A stretch of DNA of 64,000 nt, taken from an uncultured Methanosarcinales archaeon (lineage in GTDB: Archaea > Nanobdellota > Nanobdellia > Woesearchaeales > WJKL01). Where the stretch lies: assembly GCA_964521755.1 (NCBI GenBank), contig CAZFSZ010000002.1, positions 7,549 to 71,548 of the forward strand, read 5' to 3'. Both the position numbers and the translations under genes were made by a program. Numbering within the stretch: position 1 is the stretch's first letter; each line of letters begins with the position of its first letter. Below the pieces are notes generated by a model, which worked only from the letters and a program-made list of their open reading frames with translations, made no database searches and had not been told where the DNA came from. Of the stretch, positions 1,628 through 52,018 are shown in pieces.

Positions 1628-1973
1628 GGTAGAGAAGCGATAAGCCACCTTTTGTCAGCCTCCACGCATCACATGGGCAGACTGCCTTAACATTCTACTT
1701 AGCGTGCTCAACGGCACTTGCACCAGTCAGGATTCGGATTTCACCGCTCCCATAACCAACGTCAAAGGATTAACTCACTTGCTTCGCAGCAAAGCTTCGC
1801 CATATCATCCTCAGTTATGGACGTGTTTTTCTGACCCATTGCCGCAGATTTCTCCGCCTGCCATAACAGCAGTGACACATAATCAGTGGGTGGACTTTCC
1901 TCAGCGATATTTTAAAAAACATCTGTTTAAAGATGTTAAATCAAATCACCGTCAGTTAAGTGCTTCCCCTACC
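1628..1973 (-). ncRNA. rnpB: RNase P RNA
   Basis: GC-enriched ~346-nt island in AT-rich DNA. The minus strand carries GAGGAAAGUCC (CR-I, plus coords ~1892-1902) and ACAAAAGGUGGCUUAUCG (CR-V-like, ~1638-1660). The 5' end GGUAGGGGAAGC pairs with the 3' end GCUUCUCUACC (P1). An internal GGGAGCGGUGAAAUCCG...GGUGCAAGUGCCG resembles the conserved GNRA/P10-12 region. The overlapping ORF 1704..1976 is spurious. Confidence 0.8.
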
Positions 1974-1988
1974 TAAAATTATAAATTT

Positions 1989-2879
1989 TTAATGGTTTAA
2001 AAAGGTTTCTACTCTCAGAACTTCCCCTCCATGCTTAATCTCTCTTTCTTTTTCAAATCCAGAAACATAGGCTTTTCCTTTGCTAAACTCAACAACACAA
2101 TCAGCCTCAACTTTGTCAATATCAACTTTAACTCCTGCAACTTTTGCATTCATCCCTATAACTTTTGCATAACCTTCAGAATCAAAAGCATGCACATCAA
2201 CTTCTCTCTCTTCTTCATCTTCAAACTTATAATCAAAAAATTTCAAAAAAGGAAATTTATCTTTATTGTAATGATTGACGCTTTTGCCGCTTCCAAAAAG
2301 AGCTGCCTCGATAGCGATTGTTCCTGTCTTGGCATTAAGGTTCAAAAAACTCTTTGAAAAATCATAATCACTTAATCTAACCAAAGCATAAGCTATTGTT
2401 CCTTTCAGATCATCTCTTGTTAATTTAATCTTATAATCTCTTTTGCTTATATCTCCTGAAAAATCAATCCCAACATAACACCTGTCTTTATAGATATAAA
2501 CAAAAACAGTAACATCTGGATTGTCCAGATTTACTTTTCCTACTATTTCATCTCCAGTCGCTTTCTGGACTTCTACATTATCTAACCTATTCTCTATAAT
2601 CTCGCTTCTTGCTGCAAAACTTTTTCCATCCAACCACTTAGAAAAATCAATTTCCTCAATCCTTTTCAAATCAGATATATCTTTTATGTTAAACTCATCC
2701 AGCAAAACTAAAACCCTGTTAGCTCCCTGGCATAGATAACAATACTTTGCTAATTCATTCTTAGAACATTCAAAAACACAGCAGCTTTCCTTGACAGAAA
2801 CTTTCTTTCCTATCAGCTCTTTGATCTCAAAAGCAGTGATGTCCTCCATACCTTTATAAGAAATTGATAACGCCTTCAT
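1989..2879 (-). CDS. THUMP-domain protein (Trm14/RlmL-like N-terminal region; methyltransferase motif degenerate)
   Basis: N-terminal [17 protein letters not shown] and a mid-region VGIDFSGD...RDYKIKL...[11 protein letters not shown] resemble THUMP plus the linker of UPF0020 RNA methylases. The DPxCGSGT motif is not recognisable. Confidence 0.4.
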
Positions 2880-5299
2880 TCTTTTATCTTAGCAGCAGAG
2901 GAAACCTTGTCTCCATCTTTCAGCTTCATAATTCTCACTCCCTGCGTTGCTCTTCCTATCTTAGAAATATCTTCTGCCTTGAACCTTATCCCAATACCTT
3001 TTCTGGTTATAAGCATAAGCTGATCCTCATCTTTTACATCTTTTATCCCTATAACATTTCCGTTTCTTTCAGTGCACTTGATGTTGATCACTCCTTTTCC
3101 TCCTCTTTTGATCAGCCTGTATTTGGAAATATCTGTTCTTTTTCCATATCCGTTTTCAGTTATAGTGAACAAAGATTCGTTTTCCTTAGCAAGGACCATT
3201 CCTACCACCTTGTCATCTTTTCTCAGTCTTATGCCTCTTACACCTCTTGCAGTCCTTCCCATGCTTCTTACATCTTTTTCTTTAAATCTGATAGCCTTTC
3301 CCTTCCTTGTTGCAAGGATTATATTTGATTCTCCTCCAGTCTTTTTGACGCCTATAAGTTCATCATTTTTTTTAAGGCTTAGTGCAATTATCCCTCCTTT
3401 TCTTGGCCTTGAGAATTCTTCTATTGAAGTTTTCTTTACAATGCCTTTCTTGGTCGCCATAAACAGGTATCCTTCTTTGAATTTTTTAACAGGAACATAA
3501 GCAGTTACTTTTTCTTCCTCTCCCAATCTTAATATATTAACAATGGCCTGTCCTTTTGCAGTCCTTCCTGCTTCAGGAATCTCATACACTTTCAGCCACT
3601 TTACCTTTCCTTTGTTTGTAAAAAATAATACATAAGAATGTGTATTAGCTACAAAAATATCTTCGACAAAATCTTCATCTTTTGTCTTTGCTGCAATCAA
3701 TCCTTTTCCTCCCCTTCTCTGTGCCCTATAAGTTCCAATTGGCAGCCTCTTGATATAACCTGAATGTGTTATGCTTATTACCATATCTTCTGGTTTAATC
3801 AAATCTTCTTTTTCTAGTTCTTCTTCCATTTCAACTATCTCTGTTCTTCTTTCATCGCCATAGTTTTCTTTTAATTCTTTTAATTCTTCTTTTATTATTT
3901 TCAAAATCTCATTTTCATCAGCAAGTATCATTTGCAGCTCTTCTATGATTTTTACTAATGATTTATGTTCTTTTTTTATCTTCTCTTGTTCTAATCCTGT
4001 AAGTCTCTGCAGTTTCATATCTAATATAGCTGTTGCCTGTTTATCGCTTATTTCCAGGCTTAAAATCAACTTTTTCTTTGCTTCTTTTGCACTCTCACTC
4101 TCTTTTACTATCTTTATTGTATTATCAATATTTTTCAATGCAATCAAAAGTCCTTTCAAGATATGATCTCTGTCCTGTGCTTTTTTTAAGTCAAACTTTG
4201 TTCTTTTTCTTACAATATTTCTCCTGTGATTGATATAATGCTCCAAAACATCTTTTAAATTAAGAACCCTGGGTTCATTATCAACTAAAGCAAGCAAATT
4301 AACCCCAAATGTAGTCTTTAATCTTGTGTGTTTCATCAGCTGATTCAATACAATGTCTTCATTGGCGTCTTTTTTTAGAGTAATTACAATTCTCATTCCT
4401 TTCTTGTTGCTTTCATCTCTTAAATCTGAAATCCCGCTAACTTTTCCGTCGCTGACCAGATTGGCTATCTCCTCTATTAAACTTGATTTATTCACCATAT
4501 AAGGTATCTCAGTAACAATTATCTTCTTTTTTTCCCCTTCCTCTATCTCTGTTCTTGATTTTACCAGGATCCTTCCTTTTCCTTTCTTATATGCATTCTT
4601 TATTCCTTCTTTTCCTGTAATGATCCCTGCAGTTGGAAAATCAGGCCCCTTGACAAACTTCATTAAATCCTCAATTTCAGCTTCAGGATTCTCAATCAAA
4701 TAAACTGCAGCATCAGCTACTTCATTCAAATTGTGGGGGGGGATATTGGTTGCCATTCCAACCGCTATTCCAGAACTGCCGTTTATCAAAAGATTGGGAA
4801 TTTTTGCAGGCAAAAAAACAGGTTCTTTCAGACTGCCGTCAAAATTAGGGATAAACTTGACTGTCTTCTTGTCAATATCCTGCAGCATCTCTTCGCTTAA
4901 TTTGCTTAGCTTTGCCTCTGTATACCTCATTGCAGCTGCTGAATCTCCGTCAATACTTCCAAAGTTTCCCTGCCCTCTTATAAGAGGCATTCTCATACTA
5001 AAATCTTGGGTCATCCTCACAAGAGAATCATAGACCGCAGTATCTCCATGTGGATGATATTTTCCTAAAACCTCTCCGACAATCCTTGCAGATTTCTTGA
5101 AAGGCTTGTTGTGGAACATCCCCATTTTGTACATTGCATAAAGTATTCTTCTGTGAACTGGTTTTAATCCATCTTTTGCATCAGGCAGAGCCCTTCCTAC
5201 AATAACAGACATAGAATAATCTAGATAAGAGGTCTTCATCTCATCTTCAATTACCTGCTGGACAATTCTTTCCTTTGACTCTGCTTCAGTTCCTGCCAT
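2876..5299 (-). CDS. gyrA: DNA gyrase subunit A
   Basis: 807 aa. N-terminus [32 protein letters not shown] (active-site Tyr region), GyrA box-like QRRGGKG, and a C-terminal beta-pinwheel with repeats. Confidence 0.9.
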
Positions 5300-5707: not shown

Positions 5708-6073
5708 ATGTTAACTCTCATTATCTTTTATTTTTCTACAAGAGCCTGGCAAAACCCTGTTATGAAAGAAATAAAAAGAAATGCTTTCTTCGGTGTAGAT
5801 TACCTGCATATAGTTGAATTTTTTGTTGCTGGTTTGTTCATAACTTTTGCATTCTTTTTTTACCCAAAAACAAAAAAATCGTATCTTGTATATTCCATAG
5901 CGTCTGTTGTCTTCATTGCTGTTGCTGATGAAATATTTGTCCAGTCATTTATCCCCACAAGAACGCCGGATATCAATGATCTGATAAAAGACATGATTGG
6001 ATTTGTACTTGCATTATTTTGTTTCCTAATAATTAAAGAAGCATACCTCAATAAGTTTGGTCATTCAGAATAA
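5708..6073 (+). CDS. VanZ-like family membrane protein
   Basis: ~120 aa with 3-4 TM segments and a PTRTPDINDLIKDMIGF motif resembling the VanZ R-x-D-x-D/N-G signature. Confidence 0.4.
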   Translation: MLTLIIFYFSTRAWQNPVMKEIKRNAFFGVDYLHIVEFFVAGLFITFAFFFYPKTKKSYLVYSIASVVFIAVADEIFVQSFIPTRTPDINDLIKDMIGFVLALFCFLIIKEAYLNKFGHSE

Positions 6074-6891
6074 AATTCTTTTTTTCCCTCTTTTTCAATG
6101 TCTTCAATATCTTTCTCTATATCTTCTAATTCTTTGTCTTCTTTTTTTTGGATATCATCAATCTCTTCTTTTGACTGGGTTGGGTCTGGAACAGGTGGCT
6201 TTTTGGGGCAGGGATTGTCTTCCTTATCTTTCTCTTTTAACTGGGTTGGGTCTGGAACAGGTGGCTTGCGATCGTCTTGATTTTCTTTTTCTTTCTTCTT
6301 TTTTTCTTTCTTTTTTATTTCTGCTTCTTTTATCTTCTTTTCTGCTTCATCAATCTCTTTTTCGGTTTCATCCAGCTTCTTCTGCTCTTTTTCAGACATC
6401 ACGTTTCTGAATACCTCTTTTGCATCCTGTTTAGAAGGCAGATCAAAATAATTAAAAAACTTTTGAGTTAATGTTATCTTGTTTGTTCTGCCGTATTTTG
6501 TCCTGGAGATAAAGCCCATCTCTTCAAGCTCTTTCAGATGACCGTAAGCTTTGTTGTGCCTTATCTTTATTGCATCTGCCTGAAGTATTGGATATTTCCA
6601 TGCAACAACTGCCAGTGTCTCCATCAAAGGCTTATTCAGTTCTGTCTGGTTAACAACTTTCCTTACCATAGGCAGATAATGATCTTTTACTGTAAGCTTC
6701 CAATGACCTTCTCCTTCATCATGCAGGACCATAGAACTACCTTTTGCCTCATATTCAGTCTTAAGTTCATTCAGTGCATTTTTAATCTTGCTTTCGCTTC
6801 TTATTCCTGTAATCTTGGAAATCTCATCTACATGAATTCTTTTGCCAACTGTAAAAAGCAAGGCTTCAATCTTGTTCTTTTCGTTTGTCAT
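6061..6891 (-). CDS. scpB: segregation and condensation protein B (ScpB) with repetitive proline/lysine-rich C-terminal tail
   Basis: The N-terminal KIEALLFTVGKRIHVDEISKITG is the ScpB hallmark (EALLF), followed by two winged-helix regions. The C-terminal ~100 aa are low complexity and carry a duplicated KPPVPDPTQ unit. Confidence 0.7.
   Translation of the reverse strand: MTNEKNKIEALLFTVGKRIHVDEISKITGIRSESKIKNALNELKTEYEAKGSSMVLHDEGEGHWKLTVKDHYLPMVRKVVNQTELNKPLMETLAVVAWKYPILQADAIKIRHNKAYGHLKELEEMGFISRTKYGRTNKITLTQKFFNYFDLPSKQDAKEVFRNVMSEKEQKKLDETEKEIDEAEKKIKEAEIKKKEKKKKEKENQDDRKPPVPDPTQLKEKDKEDNPCPKKPPVPDPTQSKEEIDDIQKKEDKELEDIEKDIEDIEKEGKKEFYSE
6175..6267. repeat. 66-nt-period direct repeat (two copies; 27-nt identical core CTGGGTTGGGTCTGGAACAGGTGGCTT) inside the scpB tail
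   Basis: Identical 27-mers at 6175-6201 and 6241-6267. They encode the duplicated KKPPVPDPTQ peptide on the minus strand. Confidence 0.8.
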
Positions 6892-7512: not shown

Positions 7513-9393
7513 TTAAAAAGTTTTTGTCAATACCAATATAACTACAGCTAAACCCAAGGCAAAAATAAAAAAACCAGGAACCAGTCTTTTTGCTTTAAAA
7601 GAAGTAGATTCATATATCAGCGCCTCTTTTAATCTGATTAGATTTGATTTTTCTTTAAGATTTTCTTCTTCCAAGAAGTCCTCTGCTGTATCATCAACCT
7701 CTTCTATAATCCTTATTTTTTCAGTTATCTCTTTCAATGTTTTCTGGTTGTTTTTTCTTATCTTGACCTTAAGATTATAGTCTCCCTGTTCTGCTTCTGT
7801 CAATTGATTGCTAAGCTTAATGGTTTCAGAGCTTCCTTCACCCAATACAATACTTTTTTTATTTTCTTCTCTTTTCCCGCTGTAACATTTAGGGCCCCTG
7901 TAAACGTAACTCCATATATCGATATCATAGTCCTCATCATCATTATTCTCTAGACTAACTTTGATATCAAATTCTTCTCCTGCCTTTACCTCATCAGGTT
8001 TTGAGATAATTTCATATTCAAATTTATTTGAAAAAATTCTGCTTTTCTCCACTTCAACTTTCTCGCATAAAGAATCCGTGATATCCTCTACCTCAAATGG
8101 AAATGAATCCTCTGCAGTATCTTCACTTGTCCATCCTACAAAAACATCATATTCTCCAAAATCATATTTTTCATTGCAGTTGGGATAAAGCTGTATAGGA
8201 ACAGCTGCTGATATATTTGTATACTTTGTAGAGATTGTGATCTTGGATTCTTTGCTTATCTTCTCGTCTCCGTCAGCAGCCCAGAATCTCAATACACTTT
8301 TTGTCTCGTCTCCCTTATAAAGGCTAACTTTTGCTCTTATTGTCTGCCCAAATTTTGCTTTGTCATCTGAACCAAGATCATATATCTTTTCTATATTAAA
8401 TTTAGATTCTTTTACTTTAGAATAATCCTTATTTTCTTCTCCGGGAGTAGGCATAGTTCTCTGCCAGTTTTCATTTACTTTCGCCCATGAACTTCCCTCA
8501 TCTGCTCCTTCATAACTCACTTTATCTGCCAAAAAAGAACCCTCGTCATAAAATTTTAATTCTTCAAAACCTTCATTATTTAGAAAACCTGAAAAGCCGT
8601 TTGTATAAACAGCCAAAAAACCTTTAGAGCTTATTATGGTGCTGCCGATTGTTGTAGTATCTGTAATATATATTCTGTGCCCCTGCAAATCTTCTAAAAA
8701 AGAATTTTGAAGATTTATATTACTTTCTCCGGAATTATAAAGCTCAATCCATTCTCCTTGAGGCATAGGAGCATCATCATTCCCATGAGGATCAGGTAAA
8801 AACTCACTGATTTTTATAACACTGTAATCTATCTCATCTGTACCATAAATACTGTTCTGCTTTCCGGGTGTTCCTCCAGCAATAAAACTTGCCCCCCAAT
8901 TATTCCAAGTATTGTCTTCAGAAAATGATATTTTCTCTAATGTATAATTATCTCCATTGCCCCCCCAGTTAGAGCTGTAATCCAGCATATCAATATATTC
9001 CCCGTCTGTAAGGATTATGCTGTCCACTGAATTCTTTAAAGAAAGAGACAAATCATAAGCACTAAAATTTCCGTCAGAAAAATTCCATATTCTGTCGTCA
9101 TTTCCCCAGCAAGCTTCAAAACTTTCGTTGTCCTTGTCAGCTCCGTCTATTAATTCATCAGCCAATATTATATATTCTCCAGCTCCGATAAAAATATATT
9201 CTAAACTCTCCCCATTTAATGTCCATCCTGTTAAGTTTACAGCTTCATCTCCAGAATTATACAGCTCAATCCATTCACAGTCATAATCATCACATTGTCC
9301 TGGATTGTACATCACTTCATTTATAATGACATCAGCAGCAGAAATATCTATAAAACAGAATGCAATAAAACACAAAAATACAAATTTATTCAT
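7513..9393 (-). CDS. secreted cell-surface protein with two lamin-tail domains (LTD) and a PGF-CTERM-like C-terminal anchor
   Basis: Signal peptide MNKFVFLCFIAFCFIDISA. Two copies of the LTD signature: INEVMYNP...EWIELYNSGDEAVNLTGW and ISEFLPDP...EWIELYNSGESNINL. The C-terminus is RLVPGFFIFALGLAVVILVLTKTF (PGF then TM then basic). Confidence 0.65.
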   Translation of the reverse strand: MNKFVFLCFIAFCFIDISAADVIINEVMYNPGQCDDYDCEWIELYNSGDEAVNLTGWTLNGESLEYIFIGAGEYIILADELIDGADKDNESFEACWGNDDRIWNFSDGNFSAYDLSLSLKNSVDSIILTDGEYIDMLDYSSNWGGNGDNYTLEKISFSEDNTWNNWGASFIAGGTPGKQNSIYGTDEIDYSVIKISEFLPDPHGNDDAPMPQGEWIELYNSGESNINLQNSFLEDLQGHRIYITDTTTIGSTIISSKGFLAVYTNGFSGFLNNEGFEELKFYDEGSFLADKVSYEGADEGSSWAKVNENWQRTMPTPGEENKDYSKVKESKFNIEKIYDLGSDDKAKFGQTIRAKVSLYKGDETKSVLRFWAADGDEKISKESKITISTKYTNISAAVPIQLYPNCNEKYDFGEYDVFVGWTSEDTAEDSFPFEVEDITDSLCEKVEVEKSRIFSNKFEYEIISKPDEVKAGEEFDIKVSLENNDDEDYDIDIWSYVYRGPKCYSGKREENKKSIVLGEGSSETIKLSNQLTEAEQGDYNLKVKIRKNNQKTLKEITEKIRIIEEVDDTAEDFLEEENLKEKSNLIRLKEALIYESTSFKAKRLVPGFFIFALGLAVVILVLTKTF

Positions 9394-11846: not shown

Positions 11847-11961
11847 TCTAAATTAAAACAGATAGGGGCGTTCGTGTGATTTTATATCACACAAAACTCA
11901 CCACAAGATGATAAGGATAAAATCCTTGTGTGGGAATCCTCTCCCCTGCATTTTTTACAAT

Positions 11962-12432
11962 ATGAACAATGCAACTCTATGCCTGATAATAGACGAAAAG
12001 TCCAAAAAGATACTTCTGGGAATGAAAAAACGCGGTTTTGGAAAAGTCAAGTGGAATGGTTTTGGAAGAAAGCCTGAAAAAGGGGAAGATATTCATGATG
12101 CTGCAGTCAGAGAAACAAAAGAAGAGGCAGAATTAGATATATCAAGAAAAGATATAAAAAAGATAGGAAAACTAAACTTTAATTTTTCAGCCAAACCTGG
12201 ATGGTATCAAACTGTACATCTATTCATGGCAAAAACATGGCAGGGCTCTCCCAAAGAAAGCGAGGAGATGAAACCTAAATGGTTTGAATTCAAAAAAATC
12301 CCATTTGAAAAAATGTAGGAAGATAACAAACATTGGCTGCTTCTTGTATTAAAAGGAAAGAGCATCAAAGGAAATTTCATTTTTGAAAAAGATAACAAGT
12401 CTATCAAAACACATTCTATAAAAGAAATTTGA
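11962..12432 (+). pseudogene. 7,8-dihydro-8-oxoguanine triphosphatase (MTH1/NUDT1-like Nudix hydrolase) interrupted by in-frame TAG at 12316-12318
   Basis: LLGMKKRGFGKVKWNGFGRKPEKGEDIHDAAVRETKEEAELDI matches the MTH1 core and Nudix box. After IPFEKM the frame hits TAG, then continues in frame as EDNKHWLLLVLKGKSIKGNFIFEKDNKSI, matching MTH1 ...[30 protein letters not shown]. The stop therefore sits at a conserved Trp (TGG to TAG). A readthrough gene or a sequencing error are also possible. Confidence 0.55.
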
Positions 12433-12479
12433 TATATTATTCACAAAAATTTATATACTATTTGCTTAATCTAAAGACT

Positions 12480-13811
12480 ATGTCAATAGAAATAACTACT
12501 GTGGGTGGCTATAATGAAGTAGGAAAGAACTGCACTGCAATAAAAGTGGATGATGCTGCTGTAATATGTGATATGGGTGTTTTTCTGGAAAATTACATCA
12601 AATTGACCGAGGATGAAGATATTATCAATATTTCTACATCTAAATTGATGAAAGCAGGAGCTGTTCCAGATATATCTGCAATAGAAGACTGGAAAAAATA
12701 TGTTAAAGCTATCATCCCCAGCCACGCTCATCTTGACCATGTTGGAGCTATTCCTTTCCTGGCAAAAAAATTCAAAAAAGCAGAATTACTTGCGACCCCT
12801 TACACTACAGAAGTTATCAAAGCTATTCTTAAAGATGAAAAGATGTCTATTCCTAACAAGATTAAAACTCTTAGCCCCAATTCTGTTTATCAGATAAAAA
12901 AGGGCGTCAAAGTAGAGTTTATAAATATGACACACTCCACTGCCCAGGCTGCAATGCTTGCTGTTCATACAAAAAAAGGAATAATACTCTATGCAAATGA
13001 TTTCAAATTTGATTCTACCCCTACTATGGGTAAAAAGCCCAATTTCAATATCCTAAAAAAAATAGGGAAAAAAGGTATTCTTGCATTGATTGTTGATTCT
13101 ACTTATGCAGCAAAAAAAACAAAGACCCCATCTGAAGCAGTTGCCAAAGAAATGTTGAAGGAAGTCATGCTTGGAACAGAATCAAAAGGAAAAGCAGTGG
13201 TTGTAACTACTTTCTCATCTCACTTGGCCAGATTAAAATCAATAATTGAATTTGGGAAAAAAATGAATAGAAAAATCCTTCTCATTGGGAGGTCTCTTGC
13301 AAAATATGTAAAAGCAGGGGAAAATGTAAATATAATAAATTTTTCCAAAGATATTAAGATATTGAAATACAGGAAACAGATAGAGAAAGAGTTAAGAAAA
13401 GTAAACAAAAACAGAGGAAAATATCTACTGATTGTAACAGGTCACCAGGGAGAACCAAAAGCAGTCCTTTCAAGAATCGCCAAAAAAGAGTTTCCTTTCC
13501 ATCTCAAAAAAGGAGACCAGGTTATATTTTCTTCTTCAGTAATCCCAACAAAAATCAACCAGGAAAACAGGGAAAAATTGGAGAACTTTATCAAAAAACA
13601 GAAGGCAAGAATATTCAGGGATGTCCATGTTTCTGGCCATGCTGCCAGAGAAGATTTAAGAGATTTAATAAATATGGTCAATCCAAAGCATATAATCCCT
13701 GCCCACGGAAACCAAGAAATGAGAAAAGCCTTGTTTGATTTGGCAATAGAAATGGACTATAAAAAAAATAACATTCACCTTTCTAAAAATGGCAATAGAA
13801 TAACAATCTAA
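12480..13811 (+). CDS. rnj: ribonuclease J (archaeal beta-CASP metallo-beta-lactamase RNase)
   Basis: HAHLDHVGAIP (HxHxDH) and beta-CASP region, ~445 aa; the likely start is MSIEITTVGG at 12480. Confidence 0.75.
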   Translation: MSIEITTVGGYNEVGKNCTAIKVDDAAVICDMGVFLENYIKLTEDEDIINISTSKLMKAGAVPDISAIEDWKKYVKAIIPSHAHLDHVGAIPFLAKKFKKAELLATPYTTEVIKAILKDEKMSIPNKIKTLSPNSVYQIKKGVKVEFINMTHSTAQAAMLAVHTKKGIILYANDFKFDSTPTMGKKPNFNILKKIGKKGILALIVDSTYAAKKTKTPSEAVAKEMLKEVMLGTESKGKAVVVTTFSSHLARLKSIIEFGKKMNRKILLIGRSLAKYVKAGENVNIINFSKDIKILKYRKQIEKELRKVNKNRGKYLLIVTGHQGEPKAVLSRIAKKEFPFHLKKGDQVIFSSSVIPTKINQENREKLENFIKKQKARIFRDVHVSGHAAREDLRDLINMVNPKHIIPAHGNQEMRKALFDLAIEMDYKKNNIHLSKNGNRITI

Positions 13812-13903
13812 TGGATTAAGATAAACTTAAAACCAAAAACAATATAAATAAGTGCTCTTTTATACTACTATAAAATACTTACAAATAAGGGGGAGAATTT
13901 AAA

Positions 13904-14647
13904 ATGAAATTAAGTTTAGCAGAACCTAAATATTTTAAAGACAGCGTAACCATAATATCTGATTTGGTCAATGAGGCAAGATTCAAGATAACTCCAGATG
14001 CAGTGGAACTGGTAGCTATGGATCCTGCAAATGTAGCCATGGTTATATTTAAGCTTCTTTCATCTTCATTTACAAAATATGATGTTAAAAAAGAACAGGA
14101 AATAGCTATTAACCTTGGAAATCTGAAGCAAATCCTGAGAAGAGCAAAACCTGATGATATGCTTAACATAGAGCTTCAGGATAACAAACTTAAGATTCAG
14201 CTTAAAGGAACATCAACAAGAACATTTTCACTTCCAATTATAGAGTTAGATGAAAAAGAGCAAAAAGTTCCGGATCTTGAATTTCCTCTTGAAATTAAAA
14301 CAACATCATCTATACTAAGCGACGCTATTGAAGATGTTGATATTGTAGCTGATTCAGTTTCATTGATGGCTGAACCAAAAAAATTAACTGTTCAAGCAGA
14401 AGGAGACTTATCTAAAGCCCACATTGAAATACCTGAAGGGGACGAAACCAAAATAAAAACAGAGGGCTCCAGTTCAATCAAATCTAAATATTCAATTGAA
14501 TATCTTAAAAAGATGGTTGCTGGATCAAAACTTGCAGACAATGTAACTCTTAGGTTCAACAAAGACTATCCATTAAAAGTTGAATTTAAAGAGGTTGATA
14601 AGGTGCTTCTGTCTTTTGTACTTGCCCCAAGAGTGGAAAACGACTGA
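13904..14647 (+). CDS. pcn: DNA polymerase sliding clamp PCNA
   Basis: 247 aa with the two-domain PCNA pattern: AVELVAMDPANVAMVIFKL, SLMAEPKKLTVQAEGDL, KVEFKEVDKVLLSFVLAPRVEN. Confidence 0.85.
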   Translation: MKLSLAEPKYFKDSVTIISDLVNEARFKITPDAVELVAMDPANVAMVIFKLLSSSFTKYDVKKEQEIAINLGNLKQILRRAKPDDMLNIELQDNKLKIQLKGTSTRTFSLPIIELDEKEQKVPDLEFPLEIKTTSSILSDAIEDVDIVADSVSLMAEPKKLTVQAEGDLSKAHIEIPEGDETKIKTEGSSSIKSKYSIEYLKKMVAGSKLADNVTLRFNKDYPLKVEFKEVDKVLLSFVLAPRVEND

Positions 14648-17917: not shown

Positions 17918-20134
17918 ATGCTTAAAAATTTCAAGCCAAGGTTGTATCAGGAAACAATTCTAGCAGCAGCTGCAAAAAACAACACATTGGTTGTTCTTCC
18001 TACAGGGATGGGAAAGACTGCTATTTCCATGCTTCTGGCTGTCCAGAGATTCAAACAGCATCCAAAATCTAAAATATTGGTTCTTGCTCCCACACGGCCT
18101 TTGGTTCAGCAGCACATTGAAACTTTTAAAAAACATCTAAAAATATCTGAAGAAGAACTCTCCCTTTTTACAGGTCATATTAAACCTGAAAAAAGAGCAG
18201 AGTTGTGGAAATCTTCCAGTATAATTTTCTCTACTCCTCAGGGCCTTGAAAATGACATTATATCCGGAAGAATAAAACTAGATAAAGTCTCTTTATTGGT
18301 CTTTGATGAAGCCCACCGCGCTGTTGGAGATTATGCATATGTATTCGTTGCAGAACAGTACCATAAAAAAGCTGATTTTCCAAGGATACTTGCGTTGACC
18401 GCTTCTCCCGGTTCTGACATGGAGAAGATCCAGGAGGTTGTACAAAACCTATATATAGAAGAAGTAGAGATCAGAACTGAAAAAGACCCTGATGTAAAGC
18501 CGTATATAAAAGAGATAAACATCGAATGGAAAAAAGTAAAGCTTCCTCCTCCATTTGAAGAAGTTCAAAAATTCTTAAAGAATATTGTAAAAGACAGGTC
18601 ATCTAAACTGAAGAAATGGGGCATACTTAAAAGAAAAAATATCAGCATAGTTAGCAAAAAGGATCTGCTTAAGCTGCAGGGTCAGCTGAGGGGACGAGCT
18701 GCTTCAGGAGAAAAAGATTATGTATTGTGGACTGCAATTTCTGTTCTGGCTGAGATAATGAAGATACAGCATGCACTGGAGCTTCTTGAAACACAGGGCA
18801 TCATTGCATTAAATGAGTATATGAAAAAACTTCAAAAAGAAGGGTATTCAGGTAAAACCAAAGCAGTAAAAAATATTGTTAAAGATTTGAATTTCAGGTC
18901 AGCTTTAATCAAAACCCAAAAGATGTATGAACAGGAATTCCAGCACCCTAAACTTATAGAACTGCAAAAATTGGTTGAAAAAGAAGTCAATAACAAAAAA
19001 GACATAAAGATAATTGTATTTAACCAGTACAGAGACAATGCCAAAAATATAGTCGATGAGCTGAACAAGATAGACAATATTTCTGCCAGGCTTTTTGTGG
19101 GACAGCAGAAAAAAAAGGAGTCTGGATTGTCACAAAAACAGCAAAAAGAGATGTTGGAAAATTTCAGAGACAATGAATTCAATGTGCTTGTTGCTACATC
19201 TGTGGGAGAAGAAGGCATTGACATTCCAAGAGTGGACTTGGTCATATTCTTTGAGCCTATTCCTTCTGCTATCAGGCATATCCAGAGAAAAGGAAGAACA
19301 GGAAGACAGGAAAAAGGCAGATGCATAATTCTTATGACTGAAAACACCAGAGACCAGGGATATAGATGGTCAGCCCATCACAAAGAAAAAAGGATGTACA
19401 GGAATCTGGAAAAATTAAAATCCAAGATAAAACTAAACACAAAAAAACCAGAAAAAGATCTTAAAAAATATATCCCAGAAGAAAAAAAGATAAAGATATT
19501 TGCAGATCACAGGGAAAAAAGTTCTGGAGTAATCAAAGAACTGATAAATCTCAATGCACAGATTAAGCTTGACAGTCTGGATTCTGCAGATTATATCCTA
19601 AGCAGTAGATGCGGCATCGAGTTCAAGACAGTAGATGATTTTGCACAGTCCATCATAGACGGCAGATTGCTGGAGCAGATAAAGCAGTTAAAAAGAAACT
19701 TTGAATGTCCGCTGGTTATGGTTGAAGGAGAAAATGATATCTATTCTGCAAGAAACATCCACCCCAATGCAATCCGAGGCATGCTTTCGACAATTGCAGT
19801 TTCTTATAAAATACCGGTTCTTTTCACAAAAAATCCAAAAGAATCTTCTGCCCTCATCCATACAATAGCAAAAAGAGAACAGCAAGAATCTGGCAAAAAT
19901 GATTACTCAATGCATGCTGACAAAAAACCATTGTCAGAAAGAGAACAGCAGGAATATATTGTCTCCTCTCTTCCCAGTGTAGGCCCAACTTTAGCAAAAG
20001 AACTGCTTAAAGAATTCAAAACAGTAAAAAAAGTTATAAATGCTTCTGAAGAAAGATTAAAAAAAGTAAAAAAGATTGGAGACAAAAAAGCAAAAGATAT
20101 CAGGAAGATTTTAAATATTGATTATTCAATATGA
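17918..20134 (+). CDS. hef: Hef-like helicase-nuclease (FANCM/Hef family: SF2 helicase plus ERCC4 nuclease plus HhH2)
   Basis: Walker A LPTGMGKT, DEAH box VFDEAHRA, helicase motif VI QRKGRTGR. C-terminal ERCC4-like region IFADHREKSSG...DGRLLEQ and a terminal HhH region LPSVGPTLAKELL. Confidence 0.8.
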   Translation: MLKNFKPRLYQETILAAAAKNNTLVVLPTGMGKTAISMLLAVQRFKQHPKSKILVLAPTRPLVQQHIETFKKHLKISEEELSLFTGHIKPEKRAELWKSSSIIFSTPQGLENDIISGRIKLDKVSLLVFDEAHRAVGDYAYVFVAEQYHKKADFPRILALTASPGSDMEKIQEVVQNLYIEEVEIRTEKDPDVKPYIKEINIEWKKVKLPPPFEEVQKFLKNIVKDRSSKLKKWGILKRKNISIVSKKDLLKLQGQLRGRAASGEKDYVLWTAISVLAEIMKIQHALELLETQGIIALNEYMKKLQKEGYSGKTKAVKNIVKDLNFRSALIKTQKMYEQEFQHPKLIELQKLVEKEVNNKKDIKIIVFNQYRDNAKNIVDELNKIDNISARLFVGQQKKKESGLSQKQQKEMLENFRDNEFNVLVATSVGEEGIDIPRVDLVIFFEPIPSAIRHIQRKGRTGRQEKGRCIILMTENTRDQGYRWSAHHKEKRMYRNLEKLKSKIKLNTKKPEKDLKKYIPEEKKIKIFADHREKSSGVIKELINLNAQIKLDSLDSADYILSSRCGIEFKTVDDFAQSIIDGRLLEQIKQLKRNFECPLVMVEGENDIYSARNIHPNAIRGMLSTIAVSYKIPVLFTKNPKESSALIHTIAKREQQESGKNDYSMHADKKPLSEREQQEYIVSSLPSVGPTLAKELLKEFKTVKKVINASEERLKKVKKIGDKKAKDIRKILNIDYSI

Positions 20135-20865
20135 AATTTTTCTTCGAACTCGTTCCATTTATCTATGTTTGCCTGTATCTTATTTCTTTGCATTTCTAAG
20201 AAATCATTTCGTGTCTCTTTGTTCATTTTAGCTAGTTGTTCTTCTTCGAGTCTTTCTTTTTCTTCTAGCTTATGCCTTATATCAGATGCTTTCCTGGGTT
20301 CATCCATTTTTCCAGCAGATATTAACAGAGAATCTTCAGAAAGGGGCTTTTTTCCTGCATCTCCTGGCTTTGATGCCTCATAAACAATATCAAGGGGGCT
20401 TAAAAAAATAATCCTTCCTTTGTTCAATTCAGGGTATTCTTCTTTAATAAAATCTTCAATTTCTTTTTCTGCAACAAATATTCCAGGAAGACCTGTATAT
20501 GCTCTATGAAGTGGAGAAACTGTATTGATTGCAGAAACCACAACTGTAGCGGTTTCCCCAGTAAAATATTTTTCTGGAATGCTATCTGTATCTTCTACTA
20601 ATGATTTTATTCCATCTAAACTGTTGGATTTGAATCCAGATTTTTTAAAAACAAATGCATAAGCAGTTAATTTTCCTTCTAAATCATACATATTGATATA
20701 ACCTAAAACCCCATAATCTCCTGGATAATATTTAGGCAAATAATCCTTTGCAGCAAATTCTGCTAATTCTGGATTTATTTTTTCAGGTTCAACCCCCTCA
20801 TATTTATTTATACACCCGCTTATTAAAATCAAAGATATTAATATCCCAATTATTATTTTTTTCAT
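20122..20865 (-). CDS. secreted lipoprotein, unknown function
   Basis: Signal peptide with lipobox MKKIIIGILISLILISGC. Confidence 0.45.
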   Translation of the reverse strand: MKKIIIGILISLILISGCINKYEGVEPEKINPELAEFAAKDYLPKYYPGDYGVLGYINMYDLEGKLTAYAFVFKKSGFKSNSLDGIKSLVEDTDSIPEKYFTGETATVVVSAINTVSPLHRAYTGLPGIFVAEKEIEDFIKEEYPELNKGRIIFLSPLDIVYEASKPGDAGKKPLSEDSLLISAGKMDEPRKASDIRHKLEEKERLEEEQLAKMNKETRNDFLEMQRNKIQANIDKWNEFEEKFHIE

Positions 20866-20866
20866 T

Positions 20867-21712
20867 CTAAAACCTCATCTCCTTTAATCTTTTAACTCTT
20901 TCTTCCATCGGAGGGTGCGTGCTCATCAGGTTCATCATTCCTTTTGCAGAAAAAGGATTTACAATGAACAAAGAACTTGTTGCAGGACTTCCAAATCTTA
21001 AAGGATTCCTTTTAACCCCATTATGAAGTTTCTCTAAAGCTGAAGCCAGCGCTTCAGGATTCTTTATTGTCTTTGCTCCGGTCTCGTCAGCCAGATACTC
21101 CCTGCTCCTTGAAATAGCAAGCTGGATTATAGTAGCTATCAATGGAGTCAATATTGCCAATGCCAGCAGCTGAAACATCTCTCCTCCATCCCTGTCTCTT
21201 CCGCCTCCAAATATAGCTGCAAACCTTGCAAAAAAAGCAAGATATGATATTACACCAGCGATTGTAGCAGCGACTGCCTGTATCAGTGTATCTCTGTTCC
21301 TGACATGGGCCATCTCGTGAGCAAGCACGCCTTTCAATTCTTCTTTATCCAACAAACCTAATATCCCTCTCGTAACGGCAACTGCAGCATGCTTGGGGTT
21401 CCTCCCGGTTGCAAATGCATTTGGATTTTCTGTAGGAACAATATATAATTTAGGCATAGGCAGTTTAGCATCTTCAGCTATTTCCTTAACTATATCATAT
21501 AATCCTGGGTTGTCTTTTTTCTCTACTTCCTTTGCTTTATACATCATGAGAACTATCTTGTCACTAAACCAATAGCTTCCAAAATTCATGATTACTGCAA
21601 AAAACAGTCCGATAAACAGCCCCTGTCTCCCTCCTAATAATTGTCCTGCCCCTAATAATAGTCCAGTCAACAACCCCAGCAAAACCACTGTTTTGATTTG
21701 GTTCTTTATCAT
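20867..21712 (-). CDS. htpX: zinc metalloprotease HtpX (M48 family)
   Basis: HEMAHV (HExxH), N-terminal TM helices, and C-terminal ...EYLADE... Confidence 0.8.
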   Translation of the reverse strand: MIKNQIKTVVLLGLLTGLLLGAGQLLGGRQGLFIGLFFAVIMNFGSYWFSDKIVLMMYKAKEVEKKDNPGLYDIVKEIAEDAKLPMPKLYIVPTENPNAFATGRNPKHAAVAVTRGILGLLDKEELKGVLAHEMAHVRNRDTLIQAVAATIAGVISYLAFFARFAAIFGGGRDRDGGEMFQLLALAILTPLIATIIQLAISRSREYLADETGAKTIKNPEALASALEKLHNGVKRNPLRFGSPATSSLFIVNPFSAKGMMNLMSTHPPMEERVKRLKEMRF

Positions 21713-21823
21713 ACTTTTATCAAAAGGAAAGGACTATAAAAAACTTACTAATGGGAATATAAATCAAATCTTAGCAATAAATATTTATATCCAAAACAAA
21801 TTCTAGAGCACGGGGGAAATAAA

Positions 21824-23146
21824 TTGGTTGACATCGGAACAGCATTAAGGCACTACAAAAAAGAAGATATTCAGAAAGAGATGGTTCTACATGCTGAAAA
21901 CAAGGAGGTAGTGGGAAGCTTCAAAGGAGAGGGCTATGCTAAAAGGCCTGACACCTTGACCTATCCCAGAGACATACTTGAGCTTGTGAAACAAGGCATA
22001 ACATCTTTCCATGCTTCAGAAGAGCTATGGAGCAACCCTCTGCAGATCGACCCTATGATGAAAAAGCAGGATGTTGAAAAGTTAAGGATAGGCTGGGACC
22101 TTGTTATAGATATAGACTGCCCTTACTGGGATTACTCCAAGCTTATTGCAGACTTGATTGTCAAGGCATTAAAGCATTATAATATAGATTCTTTAAGTGT
22201 AAAATTCTCAGGAAATAAAGGATTTCATATCGGTGTTCCTTTTGAAGCCTTTCCAAAAAAGATAGGGGATGAAGACGTAAGCAAGAAATTCCCGGACCAC
22301 ATAAGATTGATAGCCAATTATCTTAAAAATATGATCAAGAACGTATTCCTTAAAAAAGTCCTTGAAATAGAAAAGAACAATATAAAAAAGATAGCAGAAA
22401 ATCTTCAAAAACCACTAAAAGAGATATCTACAGGAAAAAAACTTGACCCTGAAAAGATGATTGATATAGACACTATCCTGATATCAAGCAGGCACCTCTA
22501 TAGGATGCCTTATTCTCTTCATGAAAAATCAGGGCTCTGCTCAATCCCTGTTGATCCTGATAAGATTATGGGGTTTGATAAGTCAAGTGCAAAACCTGAA
22601 AACATATTTGTAAATAAAAAATTCAGGTTCCTGGAAAGAGAAAATATACAGCAAAACCAGGCAAAAGAATTATTTGACAAGGCAACTGAAATGATGGTAA
22701 TAAAAAAGAGCATGGAGGATTTCAAGAATAGGGAGATAAGACCAAAACAAGAGATACCAGAAGATGCTATACCTGAAAAATTCTTCCCCCCGTGCATAAA
22801 AAACATCCTAACAGGATTAAGCGACGGAAAAAAACGCTCCTTGTTTATCCTGACAAACTTTCTGACATGCTGCGGATGGGAGCATGACAAGATAAAAACT
22901 CTTCTCAAAAAATGGAATAAGCAAAATGATGAGCCCTTAAGAGAAGTCTTGCTTGTGAGCCAGCTAAGATACCACAAAAACAAGAAAAAAAACATCCCTC
23001 CTCCAAACTGCCAGAATTCCATGTATTACAAAGACTTCGGAATATGCAAGCCTGACAACTTATGCAGAAAGATAAAAAACCCTGTGCAGTATTCAAAAAG
23101 AAAGACATATTTTCTGAACAAAAATAAAAGCAGAAAAAAATCATAA
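21824..23146 (+). CDS. priS: DNA primase, fused small-subunit catalytic domain (PriS) and PriL-CTD-like C-terminal domain
   Basis: AEP motifs LVIDIDCPYW (hhhDhD) and SGNKGFHIGVPFEAF (sGxxGhH). The C-terminal FFPPCIKNILTGLSDGKKRSLFILTNFLTCCGW resembles the conserved PPC(M/I)...R..LF.L.FL..G motif of the primase large-subunit C-terminal domain, with further Cys residues downstream. Confidence 0.65.
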   Translation: MVDIGTALRHYKKEDIQKEMVLHAENKEVVGSFKGEGYAKRPDTLTYPRDILELVKQGITSFHASEELWSNPLQIDPMMKKQDVEKLRIGWDLVIDIDCPYWDYSKLIADLIVKALKHYNIDSLSVKFSGNKGFHIGVPFEAFPKKIGDEDVSKKFPDHIRLIANYLKNMIKNVFLKKVLEIEKNNIKKIAENLQKPLKEISTGKKLDPEKMIDIDTILISSRHLYRMPYSLHEKSGLCSIPVDPDKIMGFDKSSAKPENIFVNKKFRFLERENIQQNQAKELFDKATEMMVIKKSMEDFKNREIRPKQEIPEDAIPEKFFPPCIKNILTGLSDGKKRSLFILTNFLTCCGWEHDKIKTLLKKWNKQNDEPLREVLLVSQLRYHKNKKKNIPPPNCQNSMYYKDFGICKPDNLCRKIKNPVQYSKRKTYFLNKNKSRKKS

Positions 23147-23200
23147 TTTATTTTCGAAACCTTTTTAAATACCTTCTTTTTCTTTCATATACTCGAGACA

Positions 23201-23223
23201 GTGTTTAAAGAGGATTTAAACAC
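23201..23223. promoter_or_regulatory. perfect 9-bp inverted repeat GTGTTTAAA-gagga-TTTAAACAC upstream of the ribosomal protein operon
   Basis: Seen directly; ~135 nt upstream of the L3 start. Function unknown (operator or RNA hairpin). Confidence 0.25.
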
Positions 23224-23358
23224 ATTTAGTAAACCTACAGCCTGAAAAAAGACTTTTTTCAGTACAAATGGTTTGAAGAAACTATTTTCTATAAAAAGTC
23301 TTAAAAAAAGGTTGCTTTCAAAAAAGAAAGATAGAGACAAAAATCTCTAATTCATAAG

Positions 23359-24327
23359 ATGTCAAAAAAACATAAACCAAGAAGCGGATCACTGCAATAT
23401 TGGCCAAGAAACAGGGCCAAAAGAGCTTATGCTAGAGTCAACTCTTGGCCTGAAGCCTCTGACCCAAAACCCCTTGGATTTGCAGGCTACAAGGTGGGCA
23501 TGACACACATCACTTTTACTGACAACAGGCCAAACACGATGACAAAAAATGAAGAAGTTTCAACGCCTGTAACTGTCATTGAATGTCCTCCGCTAAAAAT
23601 CGCCTCAATCATTTTTTATAAAAAAACTGATTCTGGATTAAAATCTTCTTCTGTTTTTCTCGCTCCAAAAATTGACAAAGAACTTTCAAAAAAGATTAAG
23701 CTTCCTAAAAAAACATCAAAGAAAAAACTAGATGATTACGACATAAAAGAATATGAAGATATCAGGATTCAGGTATATACCCAGCCAAAGCTTACATCTA
23801 TAGGCAAGAAAAAGCCGGAACTTTTCGAGCTTGGGCTTGGTGGAAAGATAGAGGATAAATTTAACTGGGCAAAAGAAAACATAAGCAAAGATATCAATAT
23901 CCATGATATATTCACAGAAGGACAGCATATTGACATTCATTCTATAACTAAAGGAAAAGGCCTTGCTGGTCCTATGAAAAGAATGGGAATCTCCAGAACA
24001 TCCCACAAATCAGAAAAAGGAGTAAGAACTCCAGCAAACCTGGGGGCATGGACCGGTGCAAGGCAATGGAGGGTTGCAAAAGCCGGACAGCTTGGAAAAC
24101 AGCAGAGAAAAGAGCTGAACAAATGGCTTTTAAAGATAGACAATAAGCCTGAAGAAATAAACAAAAAAGGCGGATTCAAAAGATACGGATTAGTCAAAAA
24201 CCAGTATGTTCTTCTTAAAGGCTCTTTAGGTGGAGCTGTTAAAGGATTGGAAATTATGACTATTCCTATGAGGCCTAATAGAAGACATCCAAAAGAAAAA
24301 CCCTCAATAAATCATATCAGCAGATGA
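23359..24327 (+). CDS. rpl3: 50S ribosomal protein L3 (uL3)
   Basis: MSKKHKPRSGSLQYWPR...GYKVGMTHI...first gene of the archaeal S10/spc-like cluster. Confidence 0.9.
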   Translation: MSKKHKPRSGSLQYWPRNRAKRAYARVNSWPEASDPKPLGFAGYKVGMTHITFTDNRPNTMTKNEEVSTPVTVIECPPLKIASIIFYKKTDSGLKSSSVFLAPKIDKELSKKIKLPKKTSKKKLDDYDIKEYEDIRIQVYTQPKLTSIGKKKPELFELGLGGKIEDKFNWAKENISKDINIHDIFTEGQHIDIHSITKGKGLAGPMKRMGISRTSHKSEKGVRTPANLGAWTGARQWRVAKAGQLGKQQRKELNKWLLKIDNKPEEINKKGGFKRYGLVKNQYVLLKGSLGGAVKGLEIMTIPMRPNRRHPKEKPSINHISR

Positions 24328-24336
24328 TAATTTAAG

Positions 24337-25143
24337 ATGGAACTCAAAATAATCTCGACAAAAAATGAAGAAAAAGGCAAAAAAAGCCTTCCGTCTCAGT
24401 TTACAGAAGAATTGAGACCTGACCTTATAAATAGGGCAGTAATGACTCTTCAAGCAAATAAAAGGCAAAAATATGGTGCATCTCCAGAAGCAGGAAAAAG
24501 AGCTTCTTCATTCCTGTCCAAAAGAAGAAGAAAATATAGGGGAACATACGGCATTGGACAGTCAAGAACTCCAAGAAAAGTACTTAATAGAAGGGGAACA
24601 AGGATGTATTATGTTGGTGCTTTTGCTCCGCAGACAGTAGGGGGAAGAAGAGCCCACCCTCCAAAAGCAGGAAAAGACTGGAGCAAAAAGATGAACAAAA
24701 AAGAGAACAAAAAAGCGATAAGATCTGCACTTTCAGCAGTGGTTCAGCAGGATATAGTAAACGAAAGAGGTCATTTTGCTCCTAAAGATTATCCATTTAT
24801 AATAGATAATTCATTTGAATCATTATCAAAAACAAAAGAGGTCAAAAAAATATTAGAATCATTGGGGTTCAAAAAAGAGCTTGAAAGAAGCTCTAAAAAG
24901 ACAATAAGAGCAGGAAAAGGGAAATCAAGAGGCAGAAAATACAGAAAGAAAAAAAGCATCCTGATTGTTGTTTCAAAAGAATGCAAACTTTCCAAAGCTG
25001 CAAGAAACATCTCTGGAATAGACATTGTTCCTGTTAATAGTATAAATGCTGAACTGTTGGCTCCTGGTGCAGTTCCGGGAAGACTAACATTGTTCACAGA
25101 ATCTGCAATAGATAAAATAAAAAAAGATAACCTATTCATGTGA
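24337..25143 (+). CDS. rpl4: 50S ribosomal protein L4 (uL4)
   Basis: Position after L3; ...RRGTRMYYVGAFAPQTVGGRRAHPPK... Confidence 0.9.
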   Translation: MELKIISTKNEEKGKKSLPSQFTEELRPDLINRAVMTLQANKRQKYGASPEAGKRASSFLSKRRRKYRGTYGIGQSRTPRKVLNRRGTRMYYVGAFAPQTVGGRRAHPPKAGKDWSKKMNKKENKKAIRSALSAVVQQDIVNERGHFAPKDYPFIIDNSFESLSKTKEVKKILESLGFKKELERSSKKTIRAGKGKSRGRKYRKKKSILIVVSKECKLSKAARNISGIDIVPVNSINAELLAPGAVPGRLTLFTESAIDKIKKDNLFM

Positions 25144-46836: not shown

Positions 46837-48027
46837 ATGTTTTCAAAATTAAAGAAAAAAGCACAAGGTAATGCTTCAGCTGCTGCTGTCTTGATAGCGC
46901 TAATTGGTTTGTTTATCATATTATATATACTATTAATTCCTCCTGAAGAAAGAGAAAAAATCTTAGGAGAAGATGAACTGGAAAAAACCAAAGAAGCAGG
47001 AGAAAAAATGAATATTCTTCTTTCCGAATCTCCTGGAAGGCTCTTCCCTGCTGAAAAAAGAGAATTTGAACAGTCATTTCCAGCTGTAAGCATATATGTC
47101 GGAGAAGAAGGCATGGAATTAAAAAAACTGGATTCTTTATATGCTGGAAGATCATTGTTCAGCAGCAACAAAAACAATATCAGTTTTGAAGTTGTAAATA
47201 TTGGTAACATAGAGAATGCCCTGCTAAACTTTTATATAAAAGAAGGCCAGGGAAGGCTTATGATAAGATTAAATGGAAAAGAAATCTTTAATAAAGAACA
47301 AAAAAAAGGAAATATAGACCCCATTAATCTTAATGAATATCTTGTACAAGGAGAAAATTTGATTGAATTTGAAGTTTCCTCTCCCGGTGCAGCATTCTGG
47401 AGAACAAATGGGTATTCTCTGGAAGGTATCTTGGTGACTGCAGATATACTCAGGAAAGAAACCCAGGAAAGTTCTTTGGCTTTTGTAGCCAGTGAAGAGG
47501 AGATAAACAACATGAAAAAGGTAAAATTAAGGTTCACTCCTGACTGCACTCAAAGCACAGCAGGAACACTTACTGTAGAGATTAATAATTACAAACTTTA
47601 CTCTGCAGTTGCAGACTGTAATGTGCCTATAAAACCTTTAGAGTTCATTCCTGAAAGATTGATTGCAGGAGAAAATACACTAAAGTTTATTACAAATAAG
47701 GGAAGATACCTTATTGACAATATAATGTTAAACTCAGAATTAAAAGAAGCTGTTGCTCCTGTTTATTACTTTGAGATTGAAAAAGAAGATTTTGAAGATA
47801 TTGAAGAGAACAGAACAGAAGCAGTGTTGTACATAGAGTTTGTCGATGATATAAGTGAAAAAATTGCAGACATCACTGTTAACAACCGCCTTATGAGGCT
47901 TGACCAGACTGAAGTAGAGTTCAACCAAACTATAAGCAAATGGGTTGACCAGGGCAACAATGCCTTAAAGATAGAGCCTGAAGAAGTGCTTGACATAGTT
48001 GAATTAAAGGTTTCACTGGAAACTTAG
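46837..48027 (+). CDS. exported/membrane-anchored protein; N-terminus resembles a class III (type IV pilin-like) signal peptide
   Basis: MFSKLKKKAQG|NASAAAVLIALIGLFIILYILLI: basic stretch, Gly, then a ~22-aa hydrophobic segment. The remaining ~350 aa are hydrophilic. Confidence 0.35.
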   Translation: MFSKLKKKAQGNASAAAVLIALIGLFIILYILLIPPEEREKILGEDELEKTKEAGEKMNILLSESPGRLFPAEKREFEQSFPAVSIYVGEEGMELKKLDSLYAGRSLFSSNKNNISFEVVNIGNIENALLNFYIKEGQGRLMIRLNGKEIFNKEQKKGNIDPINLNEYLVQGENLIEFEVSSPGAAFWRTNGYSLEGILVTADILRKETQESSLAFVASEEEINNMKKVKLRFTPDCTQSTAGTLTVEINNYKLYSAVADCNVPIKPLEFIPERLIAGENTLKFITNKGRYLIDNIMLNSELKEAVAPVYYFEIEKEDFEDIEENRTEAVLYIEFVDDISEKIADITVNNRLMRLDQTEVEFNQTISKWVDQGNNALKIEPEEVLDIVELKVSLET

Positions 48028-48083
48028 ATTAAACTTAAATAAAAAAGAGGTGAATAAAGAAGAGTTCTTTTGATTAAATTAAA

Positions 48084-50159: not shown

Positions 50160-50160
50160 A

Positions 50161-51012: not shown

Positions 51013-51057
51013 TATTTTCCGAAAAACTTAAATAAATAATAAACGCAGTTAAATAAG

Positions 51058-51993: not shown

Positions 51994-52018
51994 TTAAAAT
52001 TAAAAAGGAGGTTTAAAA

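Follow-up and report, generated by a model that had tools for sequence, protein, structure and literature searches.

The 64-kb stretch of contig CAZFSZ010000002.1 analyzed here (the window, to which all positions refer) contains a gene on the forward strand at 21824..23146, the product of which combines in one chain the small-subunit (PriS) domain of an archaeo-eukaryotic primase (AEP) and the large-subunit (PriL) C-terminal domain (CTD). Very probably, this gene encodes the replicative DNA primase of the cell, as the single polypeptide that is typical of DPANN Cluster 2 archaea. What we observed is the domain composition, the conservation of residues, the predicted fold, the synteny and the lack of any other primase gene in the window. 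Binding of an iron-sulfur cluster, action as a monomer and a role of the CTD in initiation are inferred by analogy to the Nanoarchaeum equitans primase NEQ395. Such a fused primase is already known as the usual replicative primase of Nanoarchaeum and related DPANN archaea with small genomes, and it is ordinary and expected for a woesearchaeal genome.

The two primase domains

Relatives of the window protein were found in 365 genomes in a scan that included one genome per species. Conservation was evaluated in a set of 81 sequences, which consisted of the best 80 of these 365 relatives and the window protein itself. Invariant in this set are H63, D96, D98, S129, H135, D216, R223, H224, R227, C324, K337, R338, F341, C396, C408 and C414.

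In the Pfam scan, the N-terminal two thirds of the protein matched the PriS family PF01896 (DNA_primase_S) at residues 102-244 with a score of 42.2 bits against a cut-off of 26.8 and an E-value of 1.4e-10 (here and below, the cut-offs are the curated gathering scores). The preliminary description of this locus had proposed AEP catalytic motifs, and they are borne out by this match, by their invariance and by the predicted fold. LVIDIDCPYW, which contains motif I (as defined in PMC10250227), spans residues 93-102 (nt 22100-22129), and SGNKGFHIGVPF, which begins with motif II, spans residues 129-140 (nt 22208-22243). The IDID segment (residues 213-216) represents the hD motif of AEP primases. 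The features of this part are as follows, where NEQ395 is the fused primase of Nanoarchaeum equitans.

21824..22648, + strand: PriS-like AEP catalytic domain, residues 1-275
22010..22012, + strand: H63 (81/81), the likely counterpart, by spacing and motif context, of NEQ395 H58, which binds the elongating nucleotide
22100..22117, + strand: AEP motif I LVIDID (hhhDhD), residues 93-98, with D96 and D98 as metal ligands; invariant (81/81)
22208..22228, + strand: AEP motif II SGNKGFH (sxH), residues 129-135, with S129, K132 and H135; S129 and H135 are invariant (81/81), K132 is variable
22463..22504, + strand: AEP motif III region DIDTILISSRHLYR with D216, R223, H224 and R227, all four invariant (81/81)

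The H58A mutant of NEQ395 is inactive (PMC10250227).

An AlphaFold2 model calculated with 31 orthologues as input has a mean predicted local distance difference test score (pLDDT) of 86.1. It consists of an alpha/beta domain that extends to about residue 275, a long helix (residues 281-305) and an all-helical domain (residues 318-439). The alpha/beta domain has the AEP/PriS fold, and a Foldseek search of the PDB ranked human, Pyrococcus and yeast PriS first. It is very unlikely that the catalytic domain is instead a repair polymerase of the LigD type, which functions in non-homologous end joining, and not a replicative primase. There is likewise little support for the idea that the catalytic module has a LigD-like origin.

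Canonical PriS carries a zinc-binding Cys/His motif next to its active site. In residues 1-275 of the window protein, no such motif was found near the active site, as the only cysteines there are C99, which stands alone after motif I, and C239, which is unconserved in the 81 sequences. The zinc motif is a trait of the canonical subunit and not of the Pfam family or the fused subfamily. Separately, a subset of the orthologues (P0069, P0073, P0089, P0096 and P0100) carries an insertion of 50-90 residues with two to four CxxC pairs that resembles a zinc ribbon. It is located between the helix that follows motif II and motif III (columns ~210-296 of alignment A2). The window protein lacks this insertion, and the equivalent site is at about nt 22430-22450.

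The C-terminal third matched the PriL family PF04104 (DNA_primase_lrg) at residues 274-418 with 38.3 bits against a cut-off of 22.4 (E=1.2e-9). The match covers only positions 64-218 of the 266-position profile, i.e. its C-terminal part. Five NCBIfam models of PriL also aligned in their C-terminal ~140 positions only, with E-values from 5e-10 to 3e-8. As the PriL models matched at their C-terminal part only, the protein contains a PriL-CTD and lacks the PriL N-terminal domain (NTD). The top sequence match in the PDB was Pyrococcus abyssi PriL (9f26_B), with the FPPC and PPNC...C...C...NP elements aligned, followed by eukaryotic PriS chains; a profile search based on alignment A1 brought no gain in sensitivity over the single sequence. 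The helical domain of the AlphaFold2 model has the PriL-CTD fold and resembles Sulfolobus PriX as well as yeast and human PriL-CTD. The Pfam scan of the primase listed no PriCT family (PriCT_1 or PriCT_2) up to an E-value of 10. Hence, the PriL-CTD-like Fe-S domain that had been suggested for this reading frame is supported by both family collections, the PDB match, four invariant cysteines and the fold, and the comparison of PF04104 with PriCT that had been proposed as a check is settled in favor of the former. The linker and the C-terminal third comprise the following features.

22664..22738, + strand: long inter-domain linker helix, residues 281-305, with a low-confidence hinge at residues 304-308 (AlphaFold2 secondary structure and pLDDT)
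22775..23143, + strand: PriL C-terminal (Fe-S) domain, residues 318-440, without PriL-NTD
22793..22795, + strand: C324, predicted [4Fe-4S] ligand 1 (FPPC); 81/81, aligned to FPPC of P. abyssi PriL
22829..22846, + strand: KKRSLF (K336-F341), basic/aromatic patch predicted from conservation and the NEQ395 offsets to bind the initiating nucleoside triphosphate (NTP) or the primer's 5' end
23009..23011, + strand: C396, predicted [4Fe-4S] ligand 2 (PPNC); 81/81, aligned to PPNC of 9f26_B
23045..23047, + strand: C408, predicted [4Fe-4S] ligand 3; 81/81
23063..23065, + strand: C414, predicted [4Fe-4S] ligand 4, followed by KIKNP; 81/81, aligned to C...NP of 9f26_B

K337, R338 and F341 of the patch are present in all 81 sequences, and position 336 is always K or R. 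The preliminary description had pointed to the cysteines of the C-terminal segment in general, and this was correct in part. C324, which lies in the stretch FFPPCIKNILTGLSDGKKRSLFILTNFLTCCGW (FFPPC...TCCGW, residues 320-352, nt 22781-22879), and the more distal C396, C408 and C414 are conserved. The C349/C350 pair of TCCGW was considered as a source of cluster ligands and rejected: it is unconserved, is replaced by S or V in most orthologues and lies outside the cluster site.

Orthologues, gene boundaries and surroundings

The window protein has more than 4,400 matches among database proteins. Among the matches listed, nearly all are 425-460 residues long, the annotation of most includes both Pfam domains, and the named sources are 'Candidatus Woesearchaeota archaeon' or 'Nanoarchaeota archaeon'. 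In the public records, the primase and most proteins closely related to it go by the name of 'hypothetical protein' or 'DNA primase small subunit domain-containing protein', even though they represent the fused replicative primase. Many genomes with close orthologues (L009-L011, L013, L017, L078 and others) are third-party metagenome-assembled genomes labelled 'uncultured Methanosarcinales archaeon', and one orthologue contig bears the name 'Candidatus Omnitrophica bacterium CG1_02_40_15'. Given that these proteins are 49-61% identical to the woesearchaeal primase, such labels are probably taxonomic misassignments or result from bin contamination.

Could the fusion have been created by a sequencing or assembly error that joined two adjacent genes? 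One nanohaloarchaeon does have the two halves as adjacent separate genes (PMC3914693), but nothing in support of this explanation was found for the window gene. The reading frame is continuous in all 80 independent loci, where it encodes 423-506 residues, and in thousands of database proteins. Furthermore, the identical protein, with both domains present, is encoded both on an NCBI contig and on one of a Logan assembly, and these two sources are independent. As the continuous reading frame is conserved across genomes, an artefact is refuted, and we regard it as the least probable of all the alternatives considered.

In the list of open reading frames (ORFs), the gene is an uninterrupted frame of 440 codons that starts with TTG and ends with a TAA stop at 23144-23146. 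The TTG is the earliest start codon past the in-frame stop at 21749-21751 and is preceded by a GGGGG tract. The N-termini of the orthologues line up with it, and the invariant residues L8, Y11 and Q17 precede the earliest ATG, which is codon 20. Together, these observations support the TTG start. The internal ATG at codon 20 was rejected as a start because conserved residues and the N-termini of the orthologues are located upstream of it. The gene and its flanking elements are as follows.

21824..23146, + strand: priS-priL fusion gene, single-chain archaeo-eukaryotic primase (ORF list; both Pfam domains; identical public protein)
21784..21789, + strand: TTTATA about 35 nt 5' of the start codon, a putative archaeal TATA box
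21812..21816, + strand: GGGGG, putative Shine-Dalgarno-like tract 8-12 nt 5' of the TTG start
23147..23185, + strand: T-rich tract immediately after the stop codon, with T5 runs at 23162-23166 and 23177-23181

The T-rich tract is a putative oligo-T archaeal terminator between the primase gene and the uL3 operon. Judging from the TTTATA element and the T-rich runs past the stop, the primase gene appears to be a transcription unit of its own.

The window is archaeal. It contains an archaeal RNase P RNA and the genes of PCNA, Hef, HtpX and uL3, and it also encodes GyrA, ScpB, SecY and the RFC small subunit. Pfam scans of ~50 ORFs revealed no second PriS or PriL in the 64 kb. When all six frames were searched with hidden Markov models of the PriS and PriL families, with fragments down to 40 residues included, only the primase gene was matched. 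The earlier statement that there is no priL nearby thus holds for the entire window.

The order Hef(+) HtpX(-) primase(+) uL3(+) uL4(+) at 17918-25143 recurs in Woesearchaeota and Nanoarchaeota. In the 80 loci (L001-L080), uL3 is directly 3' of the primase in 58, HtpX is upstream in 44 and Hef is upstream in 35; many of the loci without uL3 next to the primase are truncated contigs. This linkage of the primase to uL3 is different from the PCNA-PriS-Gins15/L44E-S27E cluster (Berthon et al. 2008). There is little support for a functional meaning of the primase-uL3 synteny.

The surroundings of the gene bear on whether it could be the primase-polymerase of a plasmid, a virus or an integrated element, similar to PolpTN2 or ORF904 of pRN1, and not a chromosomal replicative primase. 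Fused PriS-PriL-like primases do occur on archaeal plasmids (PMC3973330), and Raymann et al. considered spread via integrative elements (PMC3914693). However, the gene is located between htpX and the uL3 operon, and this arrangement is maintained in most of the 80 related genomes. Its neighbors are housekeeping genes, with no integrase or helicase module adjacent, and the primase itself carries neither a PriCT nor a helicase domain. In addition, a collection of 2.9 million viral contigs contained no relative of the primase. Because the chromosomal synteny is conserved, an origin from a mobile element is refuted, and we consider it slightly less probable even than a LigD-type polymerase. The single-polypeptide replicative primase is the reading that we retain below.

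Several other loci of the window were recorded. The archaeal RNase P RNA is at 1628-1973 (-) (RF00373, 115 bits), and ARAGORN found no tRNA gene in the whole 64 kb. Genes of a NUDIX hydrolase, RNase J (beta-CASP) and PCNA follow one another at 11908-14647 (+), about 7 kb upstream of the primase; an association of PCNA with NudF has been noted in other archaea (Berthon et al. 2008). A bacterial-type gyrase A (PF00521, 564 bits) and ScpB are encoded at 2876-5299 (-) and 6061-6891 (-), respectively, with no gyrB adjacent. Gyrase was not found in Nanohaloarchaea or ARMAN-4/5 (Raymann et al., PMC3914693). The RFC small subunit is encoded at 52979-53950 (-), a PD-(D/E)XK nuclease similar to Cas4/Dna2 at 56869-57729 (-) and a 626-residue protein with lamin-tail domains at 7513-9393 (-).

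Five consecutive genes at 46837-52936 (+) have no Pfam match. The first encodes a protein of 396 residues with a pilin-like hydrophobic N-terminus, and the second a multi-pass membrane protein of 691 residues in which a GGAALGALKKGKTSKKRSPTGGA stretch is duplicated. The remaining three genes encode paralogues of 283, 311 and 305 residues, in which a hydrophobic N-terminus is followed by a Cys, as in lipoproteins, and which share GGQGAPVAV and LDY.Y motifs. The run may represent a DPANN cell-surface module.

Proposed mechanism

The conservation pattern suggests that the mechanism is most likely that of NEQ395 and the heterodimeric AEP primases. The PriS domain would catalyze nucleotidyl transfer by means of an acidic triad, in which D96, D98 and D216 would bind the catalytic metals, and S129, H135, H224 and R227 would bind the elongating NTP. 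In the C-terminal domain, C324, C396, C408 and C414 would hold a [4Fe-4S] cluster, and K336, K337, R338 and F341 would hold the initiating NTP together with the primer's 5' end and thereby allow the first dinucleotide to be made. The long helix and the short flexible hinge would tether the PriS domain to the PriL-CTD and set the reach between both sites. The PriL-NTD, with which PriL normally docks to PriS, would be replaced by this covalent link, and the enzyme should therefore act as a monomer, in cis.

Comparison with known primases

According to the account of Iyer et al. 2005 given in PMC3914693, the fusion was noted in the N. equitans primase at that time. Raymann et al. 2014 (PMC3914693) extended it to Nanohaloarchaea and Parvarchaeota, and Dombrowski et al. 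2020 (PMC7414124) reported it in all Undinarchaeota and all lineages of DPANN Cluster 2, for which it was proposed to be a shared derived character. Woesearchaeota are listed in the definition of Cluster 2 (PMC7414124). The biochemistry of NEQ395 was described in 2023, when the fusion was also said to occur in many further DPANN members (PMC10250227). The window agrees with this distribution on both counts. It is archaeal, and the labels of the nearest homologues and loci read Woesearchaeota, Nanoarchaeota or Nanoarchaeia, which places its host in the group formed by Undinarchaeota and DPANN Cluster 2. Its primase comprises a PriS domain and a PriL-CTD in one ORF without a PriL-NTD. The preliminary description, which had called the gene another fused primase of the nanoarchaeal type, was hence correct and even understated the case, as the fusion has been reported from all lineages of DPANN Cluster 2 including Woesearchaeota (PMC7414124). 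Beyond the correct annotation, the significance of the gene is slight, and it opens no new question.

In terms of AEP motifs and fold, the window protein is similar to canonical PriS, and it shares the FPPC...PPNC...C...C...NP Fe-S signature and the helical CTD fold with canonical PriL (P. abyssi 9f26, S. solfataricus 1zt2/5of3, human p49/p58). Unlike the canonical heterodimer, it is one polypeptide that lacks the ~200-residue PriL-NTD, and unlike canonical PriS, it has no zinc motif following motif I. In Sulfolobus solfataricus, PriX (5of3_C) forms a third subunit of its own and has no Fe-S cluster (PMC10250227), whereas the window protein retains the four cysteines. PolpTN2 from plasmid pTN2 of Thermococcus nautilus (PMC3973330) has the same order of modules, PriS-like followed by PriL-like, in one chain. 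It reportedly has no sequence similarity to the primases of nanosized archaea (PMC3914693), which suggests that its origin is independent. Furthermore, PolpTN2 is plasmid-borne, whereas the window gene is chromosomal and syntenic with ribosomal genes.

The closest parallel is NEQ395 (PMC10250227), which is likewise a single chain with a PriS domain, a long linker helix and a PriL Fe-S domain, but no PriL-NTD. The likeness at the level of residues, which rests on the spacing of the residue numbers given in that paper, extends over both domains. The S129-K132-H135 spacing equals that of NEQ395 S119-K122-H125, and the D216-H224-R227 spacing (8, 3) equals that of D194-H202-R205. K132 is variable in the family of the window protein, and NEQ395 K122 was flagged as 'less conserved' (PMC10250227). 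K336, R338 and F341 follow C324 by 12, 14 and 17 residues, exactly as R301, R303 and F306 follow C289 in NEQ395, and the gaps between the four cysteines are 72/12/6 compared to 75/12/8. Mutants of NEQ395 R301, R303 and F306 lose priming altogether but retain elongation (PMC10250227). NEQ395 was modelled with the same arrangement of domains and linker helix, and the length of its linker alters both the activity and the distribution of primer lengths: a longer linker lowers the activity, and a shorter one results in more aborted primers of 4-5 nt (PMC10250227). NEQ395 binds an Fe-S cluster, which is dispensable for priming in vitro and the role of which is unclear (PMC10250227). The window protein is longer (440 residues vs 393) and comes from a mesophile-type woesearchaeal genome of low GC content (~34%), whereas NEQ395 is from a hyperthermophile. 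As a tractable monomer, NEQ395 is used as a model for the eukaryotic-type primase, and a mesophilic woesearchaeal orthologue in which all functional residues are intact could provide another such model.
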